In this document: piece after piece, positions 34,931-43,140 of the stretch
Position numbering within the stretch: the first letter of the stretch is position 1
Layout: every line of letters begins with the position of its first letter
DNA from: Candidatus Eiseniibacteriota bacterium
GTDB lineage: Bacteria > Eisenbacteria > RBG-16-71-46 > JABDJR01
Length of the DNA stretch: 64,000 bases
Assembly (NCBI GenBank): GCA_963783375.1
Contig: CAWANH010000028.1
Location: forward strand, 1,824,001 to 1,888,000
Direction: 5' to 3'
The notes under the pieces: generated by a model
Databases searched by the model: none
What the model was told of the DNA's origin: nothing
Seen by the model: only the letters and a program-made list of their open reading frames with translations
Translations under genes and position numbers: made by a program

Positions 34931-37495
34931 ATGATCACGTTCGGTTATGGGCTACTCATCTTCGCGGCGGTGTCGACCGGGGTGGCCATGCTCGGGTACC
35001 TGCCCGGACTCCGCAAGGACTCGGGTTCGGCCAACCTGAAGCTGGCCCGCCCGGCGGTCTACGTGAGCACCCTGGCCGTGGTGGCCACCGCGGCATGGCT
35101 CTGGCACCTGATCCTCAGCCACCAGTTCCAGTACAGCTACGTTTTCCGGTACTCGAACCTCGAGATGCCGTTCAAGTACGTGGTGGCGTCGTTCTGGGGC
35201 GGCCAGGAGGGGACGTTCCTGCTCTGGGCCACCTACGGCTCGCTGCTGGCGCTCTTCCTGAGGTTCAAGGCCCGCCAGTACGAGGCTCCGGTTCTCTTTT
35301 TCTACCTGGGCATCAACCTCTTCCTGATGCTGATGCTGCTGAAGGCCAACCCCTTCGCGCTCATGGCCCAGGTCCCGGCGGACGGGAACGGCCTGAACCC
35401 GCTGCTTCAGGACCCGTGGATGACCATTCATCCGCCGATCATGTTCTTCGGGTTCGCCTCCCTGGGCATTCCCGCGGCCTACGCCATGGCCGCGCTGGTC
35501 AAGGAGGACTGGGACAACTGGGTGCGCCGCGCGATCCCCTTCACCACCTTCGGGGTGATGGCCCTGGGAACGGGGCTCCTCCTGGGCGGATACTGGGCCT
35601 ACAGCATCCTCGGCTGGGGCGGCTTCTGGGGCTGGGACCCGGTCGAGAACTCGTCCCTGGTCCCGTGGCTGGTGGCGGTGGCGCTCCTCCACAACCAGGT
35701 GATCCAGAACAAGAAGGGGATCTTCCGCCGGATCAACATCTTCCTGGCCATGCTCCCCTTCGTGCTCCTCACCTACTCCACCTTCCTCACCCGGAGCGGG
35801 GTGCTTGCCGACTTCTCGGTGCACTCGTTCACCGATCTCGGGATCAACCAGTTCCTGGTCGCGTTCATGGTGGTGTTCCTGGGCGGCGGGCTGGCGCTGT
35901 TCGCGTTCAAGTTCCGCCGGATCCCGGTGGACAAGATCCAGGCTCCGCTCTTCAGCCGGGAGTACTTCATCTTCCTGGGTTCGCTGGCCTTCGGTCTCTT
36001 CGCGTTGTTCGTTCTTCTGGGCACCTCCTCGCCCCTCCTCTCCAGGCTCTGGGGCCATCCCGCGAACGTGCAGCCCGAGTTCTACAACCGGACCGGCCTT
36101 CCCTTCGCCATCCTGATCGGCGTTCTCATGGGGGTCTCGCCTTTCCTCTTCTGGAGCCGGAACGACTTCCGGGCGGTCCTGCCCAGGCTCATGTGGCCGG
36201 TCGGGGCCTCGGTGATCGCGCTCCCGATCCTCTACGTTGCGGGGGTCAAGAACCTGGAATACCTGGCCATGCTGGACGCCGGGATCTTCGCCGCCCTGGG
36301 CAACGCCACGGTGATGGTGCTGGTGATGCGGCAGAACTGGAGCGGGATCGGCGGCTACCTGGCCCACATCGGAATCGGGCTGGCCATGATCGGCATCCTC
36401 ACCTCCACCGGTTTCGGCGAGAAGAAGACCGTGGTCCTTCCCCGGGGCGAGGAAGTCCGCGCGGTGGGCTACGGATTCAAGTTCATGGGGGTCCGTCCGA
36501 TCGAGGACGGGAAGAAGAACGCCTACGACGTGGCGCTCCGCACCGCGGGCGGCGCCTACCTCGTTTCCCCCACCATGTTCTTCAGCGACTTCAACGGCGG
36601 CATGATGAAGAAGCCGGCCATCCAGCCCTTCTTCGTCCGTGACGTCTACCTCTCGCCCATCGGGTACGCCCAGGATCGCTTGAGCGACCGCATCGAGACC
36701 CCGCTCATGCTCATGCCGGACAAGCCGCAGACCCTGAACGGCATGACCTTCACCCTGAAGGACATCCAGACCACCGCCATGGCCGACGACGGGCACGGAC
36801 ACGACTCCCAGGGCCAGGACGTGACCGCCACCATCCTGGCCGAGGCGGGGGGGGAGAGCGTCACGATCAAGCCGGTGCTCAAGACCTTCGCCGACGGCCA
36901 CACCGAGGTGGCTCCGGCCATGGTGCCCGCCACCGGCTCCCAGGTCACCCTGGAAGCGGCCGGGGCGATGGTGAGCGCGGCCAAGATCGGGGTGGGGCGG
37001 CCTCCCCTGGTGCTCAGCCAGGGTGAGTCCGGGACCCAGGGGGAGTACACGATCACCCTCCAGGGATTCGACGTGGAGCAGGCGACCCGGCCCGGGGGCA
37101 GCGTGAAGGTCTACGCCCACTCCACGGTCTCGGTCGGCGGGCAGGAGTACCACCTGCAGCCCGGCCTGATCAGCCGTCCCGGGCAGGACGAGCTCGAGTC
37201 CATCGAGGCCCCGATCGGGCGGACCGGGATGAACCTGGTCCTGGCCGACCTCGAGGCCACGACCGGCAAGGCCCACTTCCAGGTGGCTCCCACCCCCCAG
37301 GAGTATCTCTACGCCGAGGCCAGCACCAAGCCCTTCATCGTGCTCCTGTGGATCGGGACCGCGGTGGTCCTGATCGGGCTGGTCATGTCCACCCTGAACC
37401 GGGGCCGGATGGCGGGGCGCCTCTCCGCCCAGGTCGCGGGGAGCAACAAGAAGGTCGCGGTGCTCAAGAAGAACGGGAAGCGGCACGCGGCGTAG
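34931..37495 (+). CDS. ccmF: Cytochrome c synthetase CcmF with an enlarged periplasmic region
   Basis: [60 protein letters not shown]. Confidence 0.93.
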
Positions 37496-37612
37496 TCGCG
37501 GGCGGTTCGGCGGGCTCTGTTCGGCGGAAGACAATTCGAGGCCCCGGGTGGTTCACCCGGGGCCTCGGTACTTCGAGGCGCGACGCGCCGCTCCGCGCGG
37601 GGGCGACCCGGA

Positions 37613-38827
37613 TCAGGAGCGGTCGCCGGGCTCCAGGAACTCCCGGTGGAGCGCCCGCTGGGCGGCCTCACGGCTCCCGCGGAACCAGGAAGGTGAGGCT
37701 CAGGTTCCCGGTGTCGAAGGCCGAAGGCACGATCCCCGCCGCGGCAAACGCGCGCTGGGCCCGGGCGGCCACCGCGGGGGCGTCCAGGACCCCGGTTCCC
37801 ACCACCGAGACCGAGGCGTGCTCCCGGCCGACGGTCATCCGGCCGCCGTGTCGCACGGTAAGCTCCTGGAGCTTTGCCAGCAGGTCCTCCAGCTCCGGCC
37901 GGACCGGCATGTGGAAGGCCAGGTGGGTGCGCGCGGCGTCCCCGTACTGGTGGAGCGCCACCGCCTCGTCCAGAAGCGTCGTCCAGAGCCTCGAAGAAGG
38001 CGATGCGGGAGTCTCCGGAGAATTCCAGGTCCTCCATGCGCACCTCGGCCACCCGGTCCCGCCCGGTCACCGCCGCCACCTCGGGTCCCGATTCGATCGG
38101 TTGTCCTTCCACCAGGGTTCCCGCCCCCTTTCTGAACGTCGAGCGCACCTGGAAGGGGAGCCGCCGTCGCCGGGCCAGCTCCACCGCCCGCGCGTGCATG
38201 ACCCCCGCCCCGTGGCAGGCCAGCTCCAGCATGGTATCCCAGCTCACCCGGCGAAGGAGCCGCCCCGCGGGAACCGTTCGCGGATCCGCGGTCATCACCC
38301 CCGCCACGTCGGTGTAGATCTCGCAGAGATCGGCGCCGAGGCCCACCGCCAGGGCCACCGCGCTGGTGTCGCTTCCACCCCGGCCCAGGGTCGTCACCTC
38401 CTTCTCGCGGCTCACCCCCTGGAAGCCGGCCACGATCACCACCCGGCCGCGGTCCAGCTCGGGGCCGATCCGGATGGGGCGGATCTCGAGGATGCGCGCC
38501 CGGGTATGGGCGGTGTCGGTGATGATGCCGCTCTGGCTCCCGGTGAAGGAGATCGCCGCCACCCCCCGGGTCTCGAGAGCCATGGAGAGAAGGGCCATGG
38601 AGATGCGCTCGCCGGCGGTGAGGAGCATGTCCATCTCGCGGCGGCTCGGCCGCTCGGTGACCCGGGCGGCCAGGGTGAGGAGCCGGTCGGTGGTGTGCCC
38701 CATGGCCGAGACGACCACGACGACGCGGTCCGCCGGCCCGGTGGCGGGCGGCGATGCGGTCGGCCACCCGCTGGATCCGCCTGGGGGTGCCGACCGAGGT
38801 GCCGCCGTATTTCTGGACCACCAGCAC
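37613..38827 (-). pseudogene. lysC: Aspartate kinase broken by three frameshifts (pseudogene or sequencing errors)
   Basis: [48 protein letters not shown] domain, ending ALHREF; frame switches near 38730, 37977 and 37672. Confidence 0.85.
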
Positions 38828-38924
38828 GCGCGCCTCCCTACGACCGATTCGGCCGCCCCGTTTGGCGGGGGCCTGGAACACCCGACGGAGTATAGGGTTG
38901 GACGGCCCGGAGGTCAAAATTCCG

Positions 38925-38984: not shown

Positions 38985-39060
38985 GCGGAAGTAGCTCAGC
39001 TGGTAGAGCTCCACCTTGCCAAGGTGGTTGTCGCGGGTTCGAGTCCCGTCTTCCGCTCCA
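38985..39060 (+). tRNA. tRNA-Gly(GCC)
   Basis: GCGGAAGTAGCTCAGCTGGTAGAGCTCCACCTTGCCAAGGTGGTTGTCGCGGGTTCGAGTCCCGTCTTCCGCTCCA: 76 nt cloverleaf, anticodon GCC, encoded CCA. Confidence 0.98.
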
Positions 39061-39153
39061 TTTCTTCCTCCCGAGCGCCGCTCGGTCTCCAAACACGAGA
39101 GGGTGCCCACCCTATGGTGATCGCCCTTGTGAAACGTGGTTCCCAGGTACTCG

Positions 39154-42100
39154 CTACCGGATGACGACTATTCTCCGGGTCGCTTCGAACGTCCCAGCCC
39201 GAAGCCGGTAGAGATAAACGCCGGCGGCGGCTGGTTGCCCCGAGCTGTCCGCTCCGTCCCAGGCGATCTCGTGCCTGCCCACGGGCAGGACCTCCCGGGC
39301 CAGGGTGCGCACCAGCCTCCCGGTGACGTCGAACACCTCCAGTGAGACCGCTGCCTCTGCCGGCAGGTCGAAGGCGATGCGGGAACCCGCTCGTAGCGGA
39401 TTGGGCATGGCTCCTCGCAGGGCGAATACGGTGGGAGTTACCGATCCTTCGCCCACTGCGGTGACCGACCCGGAGGATGCCGGGTCACTCTCGTTGCCTG
39501 CGTAGTCCAGGGCGGTGATCTTGTAGAAGACCGATCCCGGATCGGCGGGGGAGTCCTGCCAGGAGGTCGTAGCGGTCTCGTGAACCAGGGTTTCCGGGCC
39601 GGGTAGGAATCCGGGGTCGGTGGAGCGGTAGACCCGGAAGTATTGAAAGTCGGGTTCGGGAGCAGGATCCCAGGACAGGCCCACGGCACCCACGCTGAAG
39701 ATGGCAGCGAGCCCCTGGGGCACGCCGGGAGCGAGGTTGTCCACAGAATACCCGCTGTCGGGATGGGAATCAAAGAAGACCCCGGGTGTCGCCGTGAGTG
39801 CACTCACCATGAAGGTGGTCACGTAGAGGCCCGAGGCAATGGTGGAGTCCGCGAGGGTAGGAACGATCACGGCGTAGTCGTCCTCGACCCGGACCGGCAC
39901 CGTGGTGAGGAAATCCCATCCTGCGGCCTGCATCGTCGCGGCGTGCTGTGCGGTGGCATGGGAGAGGCCCGAGTACGAGGAAGGCACGAGCGTGGGGGAG
40001 GGACCGGACAGGCCCGGGTCGATCTTCCGGTAGACGGCGTACTCCACGATCTGCTCGGGATCGCCGATGAAGTCGTGAGCGCTACGACGCCACTCCACGC
40101 GGACCTGTCGGCCCTGGTCGTTGGGGACGTCGCCGACCGCGGTGATCTCACCGAAGTCGTTGAGCCACTCGGCGGTGACACCCGTGACCTTCGGGCTTTG
40201 CCCGACATACTCCAGGCTCGAGCGCCAGATCAAGTCGGTCCCGGACGCGCCGAACGTCGCCCATTCACCCGCAACGACGCTCTGGAAATTGAGACCGTCG
40301 TCGGCACTGAGCTCCCAAGAGATCCCCGGCGTTTCGGAAGGCACTACGCGGCCCTTCAGGATTACATCGTCGGCGCCGTCCACGGCCACGGACCGTGCAC
40401 TGTTGTTGGCCAGATCCGACTCATCCTGGAGAAATTGAACGATCTGGATGTCGTTATTGGAATTGGTCCCCACGAATGCGTGGTGGCCGGACACAGCGAT
40501 GCGGCGCGCTGTGGACCCCGGCAGATCCAGCACGCCGATCTCTCCGGGGTCTAGTGGGTCTGAGATGTCCAGAACATAAAGTAGAGACGTGCCAGAAGTG
40601 CCAAGAATAGCAACATCCCCGGTGACATCGACACCGGCGATATTCGCTCCAGGGTCAAATACCGACGTGCTTGACAGGGCCGCAGGATTGGTCGCGTCCA
40701 TGAGAACGAGACCGTAGCCGCCAACGAAGACATTGTCTCCGGCGACGGCGATTTGCCCGGCGCTGCATAGACACACGGAAATGTCGTCCAGCAAGACGAG
40801 CCCCGAGGGATTGGTGATATCAATGCTGTAGAGCGAAGTGCCGCTGGTAAAGAAGGCCGTGGCGCCGTCGATCTCAATGTCGCCGGGGAATCCGTTCAGG
40901 ATGATCAGAGAATCCAAGAGAACCGGTGCACCCGGGTTTGAGATGTCCAGCGCACCGAATCCGGTCCACTCTGCCCCGAAGTACGCGACCCCGCCGGCAA
41001 TGTTCACCGTTCGGGTAGTCCCCACAGTGGGATGCGTGGACAGTGGGACCGGGGAGGAGGTGTCGGATATGTCCACAAGGATGACTCCCGCTGTGTCCGC
41101 GGCGAGGGCGGCCAGATCTCCGCTCACAGACACGTCCCACACCTTGGGCGCGCCGGGCGGCACATAGTTGCCCACCTCCATCGGCGCGGCGGGATCAGTT
41201 ACGTCGAGAATGCGCAACCCACCGGTGGAGCTGGCCGAGTAGAGGAGATTCCCGGAGACTTCGACTCCGTCGGCTCTTCCGGTGAGGGAGAGCCCGGCCA
41301 CTGAAACCGGCGGAAAGGCGTCGGCCACGCGAATGATCCTGAGCCCCTCACCGCTGTCGGCCACGAAGGCGTGCTTTCCGGCGGTCTCGATGCCCGCCGC
41401 GGTTCCCGGGGTGTCCAGGGTCTGAACAATCGTGGGAGCGGCGGGATTGCTCACGTCCACGACCTGGAGGCCGTCGCTCCCGTCGGCGACAAGAACGCGG
41501 TCACCGTCGGCAACCACCTTGGAGGCGGAACCGGGAGTGTCTACGGTGCCCACGAGCGAGGGGCTCGTGGGATCGGTAACGTCGATGATCTGAAGCCCGG
41601 CGCTTCCGTCGGCCACATAAGCGTAGTTTCCATCCACAAAGACGCCGAAAGCGCTCCCGGGAGTATCGTAGGCTCCTTCCAGGGTCGGCACCGAGGGGTT
41701 GCTGATGTCGATGATCTGCAGTCCGGAATTGAAGTCGGCCACGAAGACAAGACTGCCCTCGACGAACAGGTCCGCCACCAGGTGCGCCGTATTGAAGGAT
41801 CCGAGCAGGGTGGGGCTGGTCGGATTGGAGAGATCAAGCACTTCGATGCCGGAGAGACCTACGCCGATGACGGCCAGGTTACCTAGGACGGCAACCTTGT
41901 CGGGAGTGGTTGCGGGGTTGTAGAACCCGACCAGGGTCGGTGTGGTCGGGTCGGCAATATCAACCACGAGGAGGCCCGGGGTCCCATCGGCAAGATAGGC
42001 ATAATCGCCGTACAGGGCCACATCCTGGACGTTGTTTGCCGGTCCGTAGGTTCCGGCGATGCCAGGAGCCGTGAGGTCGGAGACGTCGATTACCTGAAGA

Positions 42101-42360
42101 CCCGAGGAAGCATCAGTCACGAACGCGTAATCCCCGGCTACCGCGAGAGCGCGTGCGTTTCCCGGAGTGTCCACGGAACCCACTGTAGCGGGGGAGAACG
42201 GGAAGAGTCCTAGTTCGCCATCCCCGGTGTTCCAGTCGGCGGTGGTGTTCAGACTGTCCTTGAATACGGTGGTCGTGAAGTCCTCCGTGTAGGTACCCGC
42301 GAAGGCAGGGAAGGGGGCGATGCAAAGGAGCAGCGCAAGAAGTCTGATGCGATCGGCCAA
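39154..42360 (-). CDS. Secreted LVIVD-repeat beta-propeller protein with FN3-like and C-terminal FlgD-Ig sorting-like domain
   Basis: Signal peptide, about 14 L.I.D(V/I)S.P..P repeats, DVPNDQG domain, DNLAPGVP, PNP...VFDVTGRLVRTL...WDG...GVYLYRL tail. Confidence 0.88.
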   Translation of the reverse strand: MADRIRLLALLLCIAPFPAFAGTYTEDFTTTVFKDSLNTTADWNTGDGELGLFPFSPATVGSVDTPGNARALAVAGDYAFVTDASSGLQVIDVSDLTAPGIAGTYGPANNVQDVALYGDYAYLADGTPGLLVVDIADPTTPTLVGFYNPATTPDKVAVLGNLAVIGVGLSGIEVLDLSNPTSPTLLGSFNTAHLVADLFVEGSLVFVADFNSGLQIIDISNPSVPTLEGAYDTPGSAFGVFVDGNYAYVADGSAGLQIIDVTDPTSPSLVGTVDTPGSASKVVADGDRVLVADGSDGLQVVDVSNPAAPTIVQTLDTPGTAAGIETAGKHAFVADSGEGLRIIRVADAFPPVSVAGLSLTGRADGVEVSGNLLYSASSTGGLRILDVTDPAAPMEVGNYVPPGAPKVWDVSVSGDLAALAADTAGVILVDISDTSSPVPLSTHPTVGTTRTVNIAGGVAYFGAEWTGFGALDISNPGAPVLLDSLIILNGFPGDIEIDGATAFFTSGTSLYSIDITNPSGLVLLDDISVCLCSAGQIAVAGDNVFVGGYGLVLMDATNPAALSSTSVFDPGANIAGVDVTGDVAILGTSGTSLLYVLDISDPLDPGEIGVLDLPGSTARRIAVSGHHAFVGTNSNNDIQIVQFLQDESDLANNSARSVAVDGADDVILKGRVVPSETPGISWELSADDGLNFQSVVAGEWATFGASGTDLIWRSSLEYVGQSPKVTGVTAEWLNDFGEITAVGDVPNDQGRQVRVEWRRSAHDFIGDPEQIVEYAVYRKIDPGLSGPSPTLVPSSYSGLSHATAQHAATMQAAGWDFLTTVPVRVEDDYAVIVPTLADSTIASGLYVTTFMVSALTATPGVFFDSHPDSGYSVDNLAPGVPQGLAAIFSVGAVGLSWDPAPEPDFQYFRVYRSTDPGFLPGPETLVHETATTSWQDSPADPGSVFYKITALDYAGNESDPASSGSVTAVGEGSVTPTVFALRGAMPNPLRAGSRIAFDLPAEAAVSLEVFDVTGRLVRTLAREVLPVGRHEIAWDGADSSGQPAAAGVYLYRLRAGTFEATRRIVVIR

Positions 42361-42652
42361 GGATGACCCTCCAATCGATTGCCGGGATGTGAAGAGAGCG
42401 AGGTTCAGCGAGGTCCCTGAACGCGAGCAAAAAGCAGATAATTACTATAGCAAATTAGAGGTCTCAGGCAAAAGCGCCTCGCGACTCCGGTTTTCTTTGC
42501 TCGCCTATTCGGCCCTCATTCAGTCTGAGGGTCACGGTCTGTTACTCTCTGTCACACCTCGGGCCTGGAGCGGGCCACCCTTACGCATCCACTGCCTTTG
42601 CAATACATTGTCCCACAGCAATATACGGAGCTGGGCTGAATCAGGCGCTCTT

Positions 42653-42699
42653 CCTTGCCAAGGTGGTTGTCGCGGGTTCGAGTCCCGTCTTCCGCTCCA
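42653..42699 (+). repeat. att direct repeat (displaced 3' half of tRNA-Gly)
   Basis: CCTTGCCAAGGTGGTTGTCGCGGGTTCGAGTCCCGTCTTCCGCTCCA, identical to 39014-39060. Confidence 0.95.
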
Positions 42700-42705
42700 C
42701 TTCTT

Positions 42706-42734
42706 CGGGCGGCCGCCGGGCCGCCCGCTTTCTT
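42706..42734 (+). terminator. Intrinsic terminator following the displaced tRNA fragment
   Basis: CGGGCGGCC-GCCG-GGCCGCCCG 9-bp stem followed by CTTTCTT. Confidence 0.65.
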
Positions 42735-43140
42735 GGGCGGCCGGTGCCGTGTTTCCCCCCCTCGACCAGGACTGTCTCCGAAGGCCTCTCTTGAACTCCT
42801 CGAATTTCCCGGCATGCCCTTCCCGCTCGCACCAGGAACGGACGGCCTCCAGATCCACCGCCCGGTCTCGCCACGGCAACGGCCTGACTCAAGACCGATC
42901 GGTCGTTCCAGTGGAGGCCGCCGACGCCCGCCCGGCATTTCTCCTCCCGCCCTCCAAATCCGAGGCCCGGACGGTGCAGCCTGAAGGCGGATGGTGTAGC
43001 CTCGCCGCGATCGAATCGGGAAGGCCCGGTTCCCCCCGCCGCGCGGGGGCCGGGCCGCGGGGAGTCGTGGCGAGGGTTGCGCTCCGGCGCCCCGCATCCC
43101 GCCGGACCATGCACGGAGACCTTCGGGTCGGGGAGGGTCC

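Follow-up and report, generated by a model that had tools for sequence, protein, structure and literature searches.

A 64,000-nucleotide stretch of the Candidatus Eiseniibacteriota assembly GCA_963783375.1 (contig CAWANH010000028.1, positions 1,824,001 to 1,888,000; hereafter the window) contains a tRNA-Gly(GCC) gene, the 3' half of which occurs again about 3.6 kb downstream. The two copies bracket a single gene for a predicted surface protein; we call this segment the tRNA-Gly island and its gene the cargo (Table 1). The assembly (G000; 4.73 Mb, 29 contigs, 97% complete) has small contigs that duplicate regions of the main contigs at about 92-99.9% identity and represent multiple haplotypes. 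One of these, C10, covers the island locus. The locus was compared with three genus-mates and four other genomes of the family, and wider searches took in 205 other genomes of the phylum. The contigs of G005 and G007 stop less than 5 kb from the locus.

Table 1. Features at the tRNA-Gly island. Positions are those of the window.
Feature	Position	Strand	Basis or remark
tRNA-Gly(GCC), intact	38985..39060	+	ARAGORN; identical to the tRNA in the empty haplotype C10
Left repeat copy (attL identity block), 47 bp plus 7-bp trailer	39014..39067	+	
Left end, non-coding, 86 bp	39068..39153		small minus-strand hairpin at 39100-39113
Cargo gene, 1,068 aa	39154..42360	-	convergent with the tRNA; Pfam, NCBIfam and PDB sequence matches, codon usage
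Right end, non-coding, 292 bp	42361..42652		promoter-like site for the cargo at 42444-42471 (-); putative attP-derived arm
Right repeat copy (attR): displaced original tRNA 3' half plus trailer	42653..42706	+	
Displaced terminator-like hairpin and T-rich tail of the tRNA gene	42706..42734	+	directly 3' of the tRNA in C10 and G002
Frameshifted 3' remnant of a presumed nucleotidyltransferase-like gene, outside the element	42765..42917 (left end approximate)	-	C10 alignment

The tRNA-Gly(GCC) gene is the only tRNA that ARAGORN called in the window. Its 3' half (39014-39060) is repeated at 42653-42699, in the same orientation and without a mismatch over 47 bp, with 3,639 bp between the starts of the two copies. 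A single mismatch follows (T at 39061, C at 42700) and then six identical bases up to 39067 and 42706; with the upstream bases counted in, the repeat extends over 60 nt at 95% identity. It begins at position 30 of the tRNA, two nucleotides ahead of the anticodon loop, which has 7 nt (39016-39022). The top 3'-anchored match to tRNA-Gly(GCC) in 20 random 30-kb windows, which served as a control for chance, was only 13 nt long. The left arm on the element side is not identical to the chromosomal arm; the two agree at 7 of 10 bases. From the geometry of the repeat and this likeness of the arms we infer with good confidence that a tyrosine integrase inserted the segment at the anticodon loop, in which case the tRNA 3' half now in place would be the one supplied by the element (attL). 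The hairpin that starts at 42706, 3' of the distal copy, has a 9-bp stem and a T-rich tail. The same hairpin lies directly 3' of the tRNA in C10 and G002, and the one at 42706 is therefore the displaced original.

The cargo open reading frame (ORF) occupies 3,207 of the 3,585 interior bases. Its product begins with a signal-peptide-like N-terminus, as judged by eye, and matches the Pfam families of LVIVD repeats (E 1e-94) and FlgD_ig; it also carries a fibronectin-III-like domain. The 42-residue LVIVD repeats are like those of the LVIVD surface proteins (PF08309) as outlined in PMC2447325. The C-terminus is a FlgD_ig or type IX secretion system (T9SS) type A domain, which scores 28.7 bits against NCBIfam TIGR04183 and so exceeds the cut-off of 23 by a modest margin. 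The closest sequence matches in the PDB are partial (E about 1e-9 to 1e-7), and none is a close solved relative. Together, these matches point to a T9SS-secreted beta-propeller surface protein; judging from the repeat count, its roughly 14 LVIVD repeats would form two seven-bladed propellers.

The FlgD_ig tail would act as a signal for secretion rather than as part of a flagellum, a reading that takes account of the 103 FlgD_ig matches in G000 and of the matches above cut-off to SprA_N, PorV and, weakly, PorP (C29:766884-768215, C29:141266-141955 and C28:1483310-1484146). The search for T9SS machinery took in SprA, PorV and PorP. The SprA-, PorV- and PorP-like matches and the approximately 100 proteins with FlgD/T9SS tails suggest that the lineage has a type IX-like secretion system, and a literature search found no paper that names Eisenbacteria in connection with such secretion or such proteins.

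The codon usage of the cargo is unusual. Its GC content at third codon positions (GC3) is 0.754 against a median of 0.897, which places it at the 2.4th percentile of 2,164 heuristically chosen ORFs of at least 200 aa and makes it the second lowest among 76 FlgD-tailed ORFs. The protein family is large, with 447 matches at E ≤1e-50 among the 8,000 candidates scored, and its members are not generally linked to tRNA genes. At 42 homolog loci in genomes tRNA-Gly was found in none and other tRNAs in two. No tRNA-Gly or tRNA-fragment signature occurred at 34 metagenome loci, many of them on short contigs, and other tRNAs were found at three of these.

There is little else in the island. It contains no relaxase or conjugation gene, as the sole long ORF matches only surface-protein families. 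A tblastn search with 25 tyrosine-recombinase frames from relatives gave a top match at E 0.011, which falls inside the cargo ORF, and nothing better than E 0.54 in the non-coding ends; the left end is the position where the tRNA-Met islands of G003 and G001 keep their integrase. No attC site was apparent by eye in the left end (no attC model was run), and arm-type repeats common to both ends did not rise above shuffled controls. An initial annotation, made from the letters of the window alone, had already described a perfect copy of the tRNA 3' half near the anticodon loop at a distance of about 3.6 kb, the return of identity after one mismatch, the displaced terminator, the foreign-looking codon usage and a single intact gene without an integrase or its visible remnants. 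All of this is borne out by the repeat comparison, the hairpin that adjoins the tRNA in C10 and G002, the GC3 values, the ORF calls and the tblastn search. The same annotation had called for empty sites in related genomes, and these were found.

The haplotype contig C10 is such an empty site. It is 94% identical over the left flank, its tRNA runs straight into the hairpin and the downstream sequence, and the DNA to the right of the distal repeat copy is about 89% identical to it. The insert is also absent from all seven family genomes, in none of which the tRNA has an anticodon-type second copy. Because the segment is missing from the C10 haplotype and from every one of these relatives, the 3.6-kb segment is a true insertion at tRNA-Gly(GCC).

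Other data sets contain the cargo as well. Near-identical proteins occur in three other records, a related cargo record (P0003) matches at 87% over the region searched, and parts of the interior are matched at 99-100% by contigs from public sequencing runs. Among the contig pieces listed none reaches across the whole island, so that its junctions are supported indirectly; the island itself sits within a contig of 2.04 Mb. A Logan contig with a cargo variant of one residue is 3,645 bp long. Logan is built on 31-mers, and this would be the length expected in a 31-mer graph for an interior bounded by 54-bp repeats. Among the joints listed for assembled contigs from five of the eight runs, none is circular or marks an empty site, which does not show that such joints are absent. 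A single, shallow contig from run X4 links the 5' end of the cargo to a damaged, 22-bp tRNA end and omits 262 bp; this joint, with fewer than 30 bases on one side, is a weak indication of a further-eroded allele.

We searched for the integrase that could have moved the island. A PF00589 search of G000 gave five matches, four of them distinct: two are XerC/XerD-like by sequence and size, one is an integron integrase above cut-off and one is degenerate and integron-like. A PF07508 search gave two serine-recombinase matches on other contigs. None of these recombinases is a candidate helper, and neither the PF00589 search nor tblastn with the 25 frames found an integrase of the tRNA-island type in this 97%-complete assembly. 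The ends of the island were followed in the same way. Neither G000 nor any of the 205 other genomes of the phylum yielded a further copy of the right end; four of the latter gave matches of 22-49 bp (E 0.003-0.009) that we judged to be due to chance. The left end was searched within a whole-locus query over 41 genomes (144 weaker matches lay outside the listing) and against 18 integrase loci; a 17-bp match in G006 among the latter lies away from any tRNA end and was likewise put down to chance. A scan for the exact tRNA-Gly(GCC) pattern covered 201 and then 206 genomes, of which 50 have the pattern and 156 do not and are thus uninformative. The few double matches were rejected as displaced copies: those in G146 and G158 are contig-end overlaps of one tRNA, that in G006 is a full second tRNA, and that in G057 consists of short 3'-end copies on a 2.4-kb contig of doubtful origin. 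The cargo had no match among viral sequences, and a 17-nt arm pattern occurred at four loci, none of which is followed by tRNA sequence.

Other tRNA islands of the genus visibly show graded decay, from an intact integrase to a fragment and then to a scar of about 300 bp. In G003 a full-length integrase frame lies directly beside tRNA-Met. At the same tRNA-Met site G001 retains only the last 111 codons of the integrase, at its C-terminal end, and then a gene with a T9SS tail. The scar, which contains only the 3' end of a gene, lies in G003 between tRNA-Leu(TAA) and a worn copy of it. G000 itself has an integrase fragment beside tRNA-Cys and an integrase-free region of low GC3 downstream of tRNA-Met at C28:1448508.

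The explanation that we favour, with a probability of about 0.62, is that the tRNA-Gly island is a deletion-reduced remnant of a larger tyrosine-integrase element and resembles a cis-mobilizable element (CIME) in that it kept both attachment sites and one useful gene. A circular element, the attP of which carried a tRNA 3' half, would have recombined within the 7-nt anticodon loop; integration would have restored the tRNA and shifted the old 3' half and its terminator downstream. An internal deletion would then have removed the integrase and transfer genes, most likely beside attL where the genus-mates keep theirs, while the gene for the predicted T9SS-secreted beta-propeller protein was retained. 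The unit may since have been inherited vertically or have spread among strains via homologous recombination of its flanks, and its excision would require a cognate integrase brought in by another element. The remnant fits the data better than a mobile cassette because tRNA islands of the same genus decay stepwise; a clean deletion of about 3.65 kb beside attR was also counted in its favour. The initial annotation had offered a reduced remnant as its alternative reading, which gains from the decay series of the genus. No larger, integrase-bearing island was found at this site in the relatives, so that for the tRNA-Gly element itself we infer the decay.

Several results weigh against a remnant. 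None of the 49 other genomes with the exact tRNA-Gly(GCC) pattern has an anticodon-type second copy that would mark a parent element. The same scan of viral sequences gave 23 loci, every one a complete low-GC tRNA gene, and no attP. BLAST matches of the right end covered the tRNA part only, among the best 15 of 49 listed for phages and the best 15 of 204 listed for plasmids. The 47-bp cores are still perfect, and the genus-mate remnants hold gene fragments while this island holds none. The Logan contig fits the expected 3.6-kb length, so that at least two data sets agree on the size of the unit. Finally, the cargo differs from the copy in another assembly at only 2 of 1,068 residues, against 6 of 387 for the neighbouring gene (Fisher p 0.006), in a comparison that assumes one shared contig, as the record of each protein lists 23,361 bp. 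This difference hints at recent lateral spread of the cargo, whether through homologous recombination or because the unit is truly mobile.

Conservation of the cargo between strains is unusually high, and a purpose-made cassette therefore deserves consideration as an alternative to the remnant. The island would then be a non-autonomous, 3.6-kb attP circle with a single gene, which is integrated and excised by the integrase of a transient phage or integrative and conjugative element (ICE) acting in trans. The interior free of gene debris, the perfect cores, the partial match of the arms around the anticodon loop and the apparently equal unit length in the Logan contig all suit this idea, as do other small integrase-free modules at the same tRNA, namely a BrnT unit of 720 bp in G004 and, in G005 and C10, a pair of nucleotidyltransferase-like and helix-turn-helix (HTH) genes. 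However, no cognate integrase was found in G000, the right end is unique among 206 genomes, no repeats above chance are common to both ends, and the G004 unit has a different, 17-bp 3'-end core and no similarity at its ends. Neither the 34 metagenome loci nor the 42 genome loci of cargo homologs have a tRNA-Gly signature. Genes with FlgD tails are not enriched downstream of tRNAs either: within 2 kb such a gene follows 3 of 47 tRNAs against an expected 2.1 (p 0.33), and within 5 kb it follows 7 of the 47 against 4.8 (p 0.20). This count used 99 of the 103 FlgD matches, after removal of three haplotype duplicates and one that overlaps a doubtful tRNA call, and 47 of the 57 tRNA/tmRNA calls. We consider such a cassette unlikely. 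The initial annotation had gone further and proposed that cassettes mobilised in trans swap FlgD-Ig-tailed proteins at tRNA loci. The places where it advised to look for such a system, i.e. further copies of the right end at 42480-42652, a tyrosine integrase of the genome that targets tRNA-Gly and different cargo between the conserved ends in relatives, yielded nothing in G000 and the genomes compared. With no helper integrase, a unique right end, no anticodon-type second copies and no enrichment of FlgD tails, a swapping system is left without positive support. It is doubtful, more so than the cassette itself, that Eisenbacteria carry purpose-made, integrase-free single-gene circles that deliver T9SS-tailed surface proteins to tRNA-Gly by means of the anticodon-type integrases of passing elements.

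A different route would need no integrase in this host at all. Foreign DNA, in which the gene lay beside the donor's tRNA-Gly 3' half, could have entered by a RecA-type single crossover or by homology-facilitated illegitimate recombination, and the tRNA half would have been duplicated in the process. No integrase of the tRNA-island type was found in the genome, and the locus is a general hot spot for gain and loss without att repeats, as the C10 pair and the 3.65-kb deletion demonstrate. On the other hand, a homology of 47-54 bp is short for RecA, and 7 of 10 bases in the left arm, although it is not identical, still agree with the chromosomal arm. The identity block, moreover, starts just before the anticodon loop, a sub-site of integrases documented in PMC4383910. 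This makes the integrase-free route improbable. It is still far less credible that the island is an assembly artefact, i.e. a chimera or a mis-resolved repeat in a multi-haplotype metagenome-assembled genome, which the initial annotation had named as a possible objection. The assembly does contain many duplicate haplotype contigs, and the aspartokinase gene upstream of the island is frameshifted. Yet the island is embedded in its 2.04-Mb contig, the near-identical cargo proteins and the run contigs come from other records and data, and the 3,645-bp Logan contig agrees with the repeat-bounded length, which makes misassembly of the repeat unlikely.

The remnant can be compared with known classes of elements. 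CIMEs are described in PMC7563491, and with the same definition in PMC5704250, as elements that have lost their recombination and transfer genes and kept their att sites; both sources define the class for derivatives of streptococcal ICEs and of integrative and mobilizable elements (IMEs). According to PMC7563491 CIMEs are very prevalent, and those with cargo measure 1.2-13 kb, a range that includes the 3.6 kb of the island. Like them, the tRNA-Gly island keeps attL and attR, has no integrase or transfer gene, carries cargo only and leaves its target gene restored. It differs in that it is single, with no ICE or IME in tandem, in that its parent could be a prophage or another island, and in that its host belongs to an uncultured Gram-negative lineage and its cargo is a T9SS-type surface protein. 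As it has the three structural features of a CIME but only a putative descent from an ICE or IME and putative mobilisation, we name it CIME-like.

A tRNA gene with a displaced fragment is given in PMC4383910 as the mark of an integrated island. The same source names tyrosine recombinases as the only enzymes known to target tRNA genes and counts 2,083 anticodon-centred cases among 3,919 Islander islands; the same tRNA sub-locations of integration are described in bioRxiv 10.1101/2020.11.02.365908. The island shares with the Islander A-site islands of PMC4383910 the full tRNA gene, the 3' fragment downstream in the same orientation, the block that starts from the anticodon stem-loop and a length within 2-200 kb. 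It has no integrase ORF, unlike these, and the Islander integrase filter would reject it. IMEs and mobilizable genomic islands, unlike the tRNA-Gly island, encode integration and excision functions of their own. Nor does the island lie, like an integron gene cassette, in an array at an attI site, the integron integrase being 1.2 Mb away. A literature search that covered few subscription journals found no published account of this element. The C-terminal domain of the cargo is like the T9SS type A sorting domain (TIGR04183), being above the cut-off.

As a remnant, the island is a scar of a common and known type and opens no new mechanism. As the same assembly also provides the matching empty allele, it would still be a clear-cut case of the gain of a predicted surface protein, followed by the loss of its vehicle, in an uncultured lineage. 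Searches of the Islander type overlook such units because they require an integrase. If the cassette were true, lineages with type IX-like secretion would have an added route for the turnover of surface proteins: single-gene circles would refresh a repertoire of about 100 surface proteins in the manner of an integron but without one, and with cargo that is ready for the secretion system of the host.

The right flank of the island has itself been rearranged. Relative to C10, about 3.65 kb are deleted at 42914-42917, 210 bp to the right of attR, and a contig from run X2 bridges this junction. The deletion took an HTH gene and an ancestral trio of GNAT-DUF3335, RimK-like ATP-grasp and RLAN genes, which is kept in the genus-mates, and it left the frameshifted remnant listed in Table 1, which we take from a motif to be nucleotidyltransferase-like. 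The insertion (3,639 bp) and the deletion (about 3,650 bp) agree in size within about 10 bp; we treat this as coincidence. On the left, at 37309-38830 (-), lies a gene that by its sequence likeness is presumably an aspartokinase gene. It has one extra base near 37980 compared with C10 and is thus frameshifted, either through an assembly error or as a pseudogene.

Apart from the island, the tRNA-Gly(GCC) gene is a recurrent landing place in the family. The unit in G004 (L025:14780-15516) consists of 720 bp with a BrnT gene, a small downstream ORF and a perfect 17-bp copy of the tRNA 3' end. In C10 and G005 the nucleotidyltransferase-like and HTH pair lies directly 3' of the tRNA and is 64% identical between the two (L001:2679-3556 and L028:1420-2304, approximate positions); the pair was not found in five other relatives. 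Its nucleotidyltransferase-like gene has no Pfam or NCBIfam match, and the pair may resemble a type IV toxin-antitoxin system. The G004 unit and the C10/G005 pair use a different core or none, which indicates a hot spot rather than a cassette system common to them.

Repeated tRNA ends were also seen elsewhere. At tRNA-Leu(TAA) of G000 (L110:3461-7246; C29:957460-961245) a 19-bp copy of the 3' end with one mismatch lies 3.7 kb downstream; the interval holds a small ORF and a convergent Ser/Thr kinase-PD40 gene. The same site in G001 is without the kinase, and the closest match is elsewhere in that genome. This unit is possibly a second, older integrase-less islet. Tandem repeats lie downstream of four tRNA-Ser genes on C29 of G000 (1087226, 1091001, 1125269 and 1126494, all on the minus strand) and of the tmRNA gene (G000:C3 189336). 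Their units of about 105-112 bp (81 bp at the tmRNA) each close with the final 16-18 nt of the RNA gene and provide 2-5 extra copies of its 3' end; we take them to resemble the tRNA-linked repeats of E. coli. In G057 (C2; L105:1-2380) copies of the tRNA end, 14 bp and 26 bp long, come after the 3' part of tRNA-Gly and separate single small genes. A similar motif precedes each copy in this array of one-gene units, and the contig may be a binning contaminant.

Two further groups of recombinases were noted. The integron integrase of G000 (C28:633617-634765; L111:3618-4765) is followed by several genes of low GC3 up to about C28:649600, a stretch that probably represents a chromosomal cassette region. 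Short tyrosine recombinases of about 190 aa, apparently the catalytic domain only, occur in several copies per genome and often near genes with T9SS tails in G001, G003, G004 and G006 (L151-L153, L155, L157, L160, L162, L163 and L165). A fragment of this family is present in G000 at C29:39653-39811.

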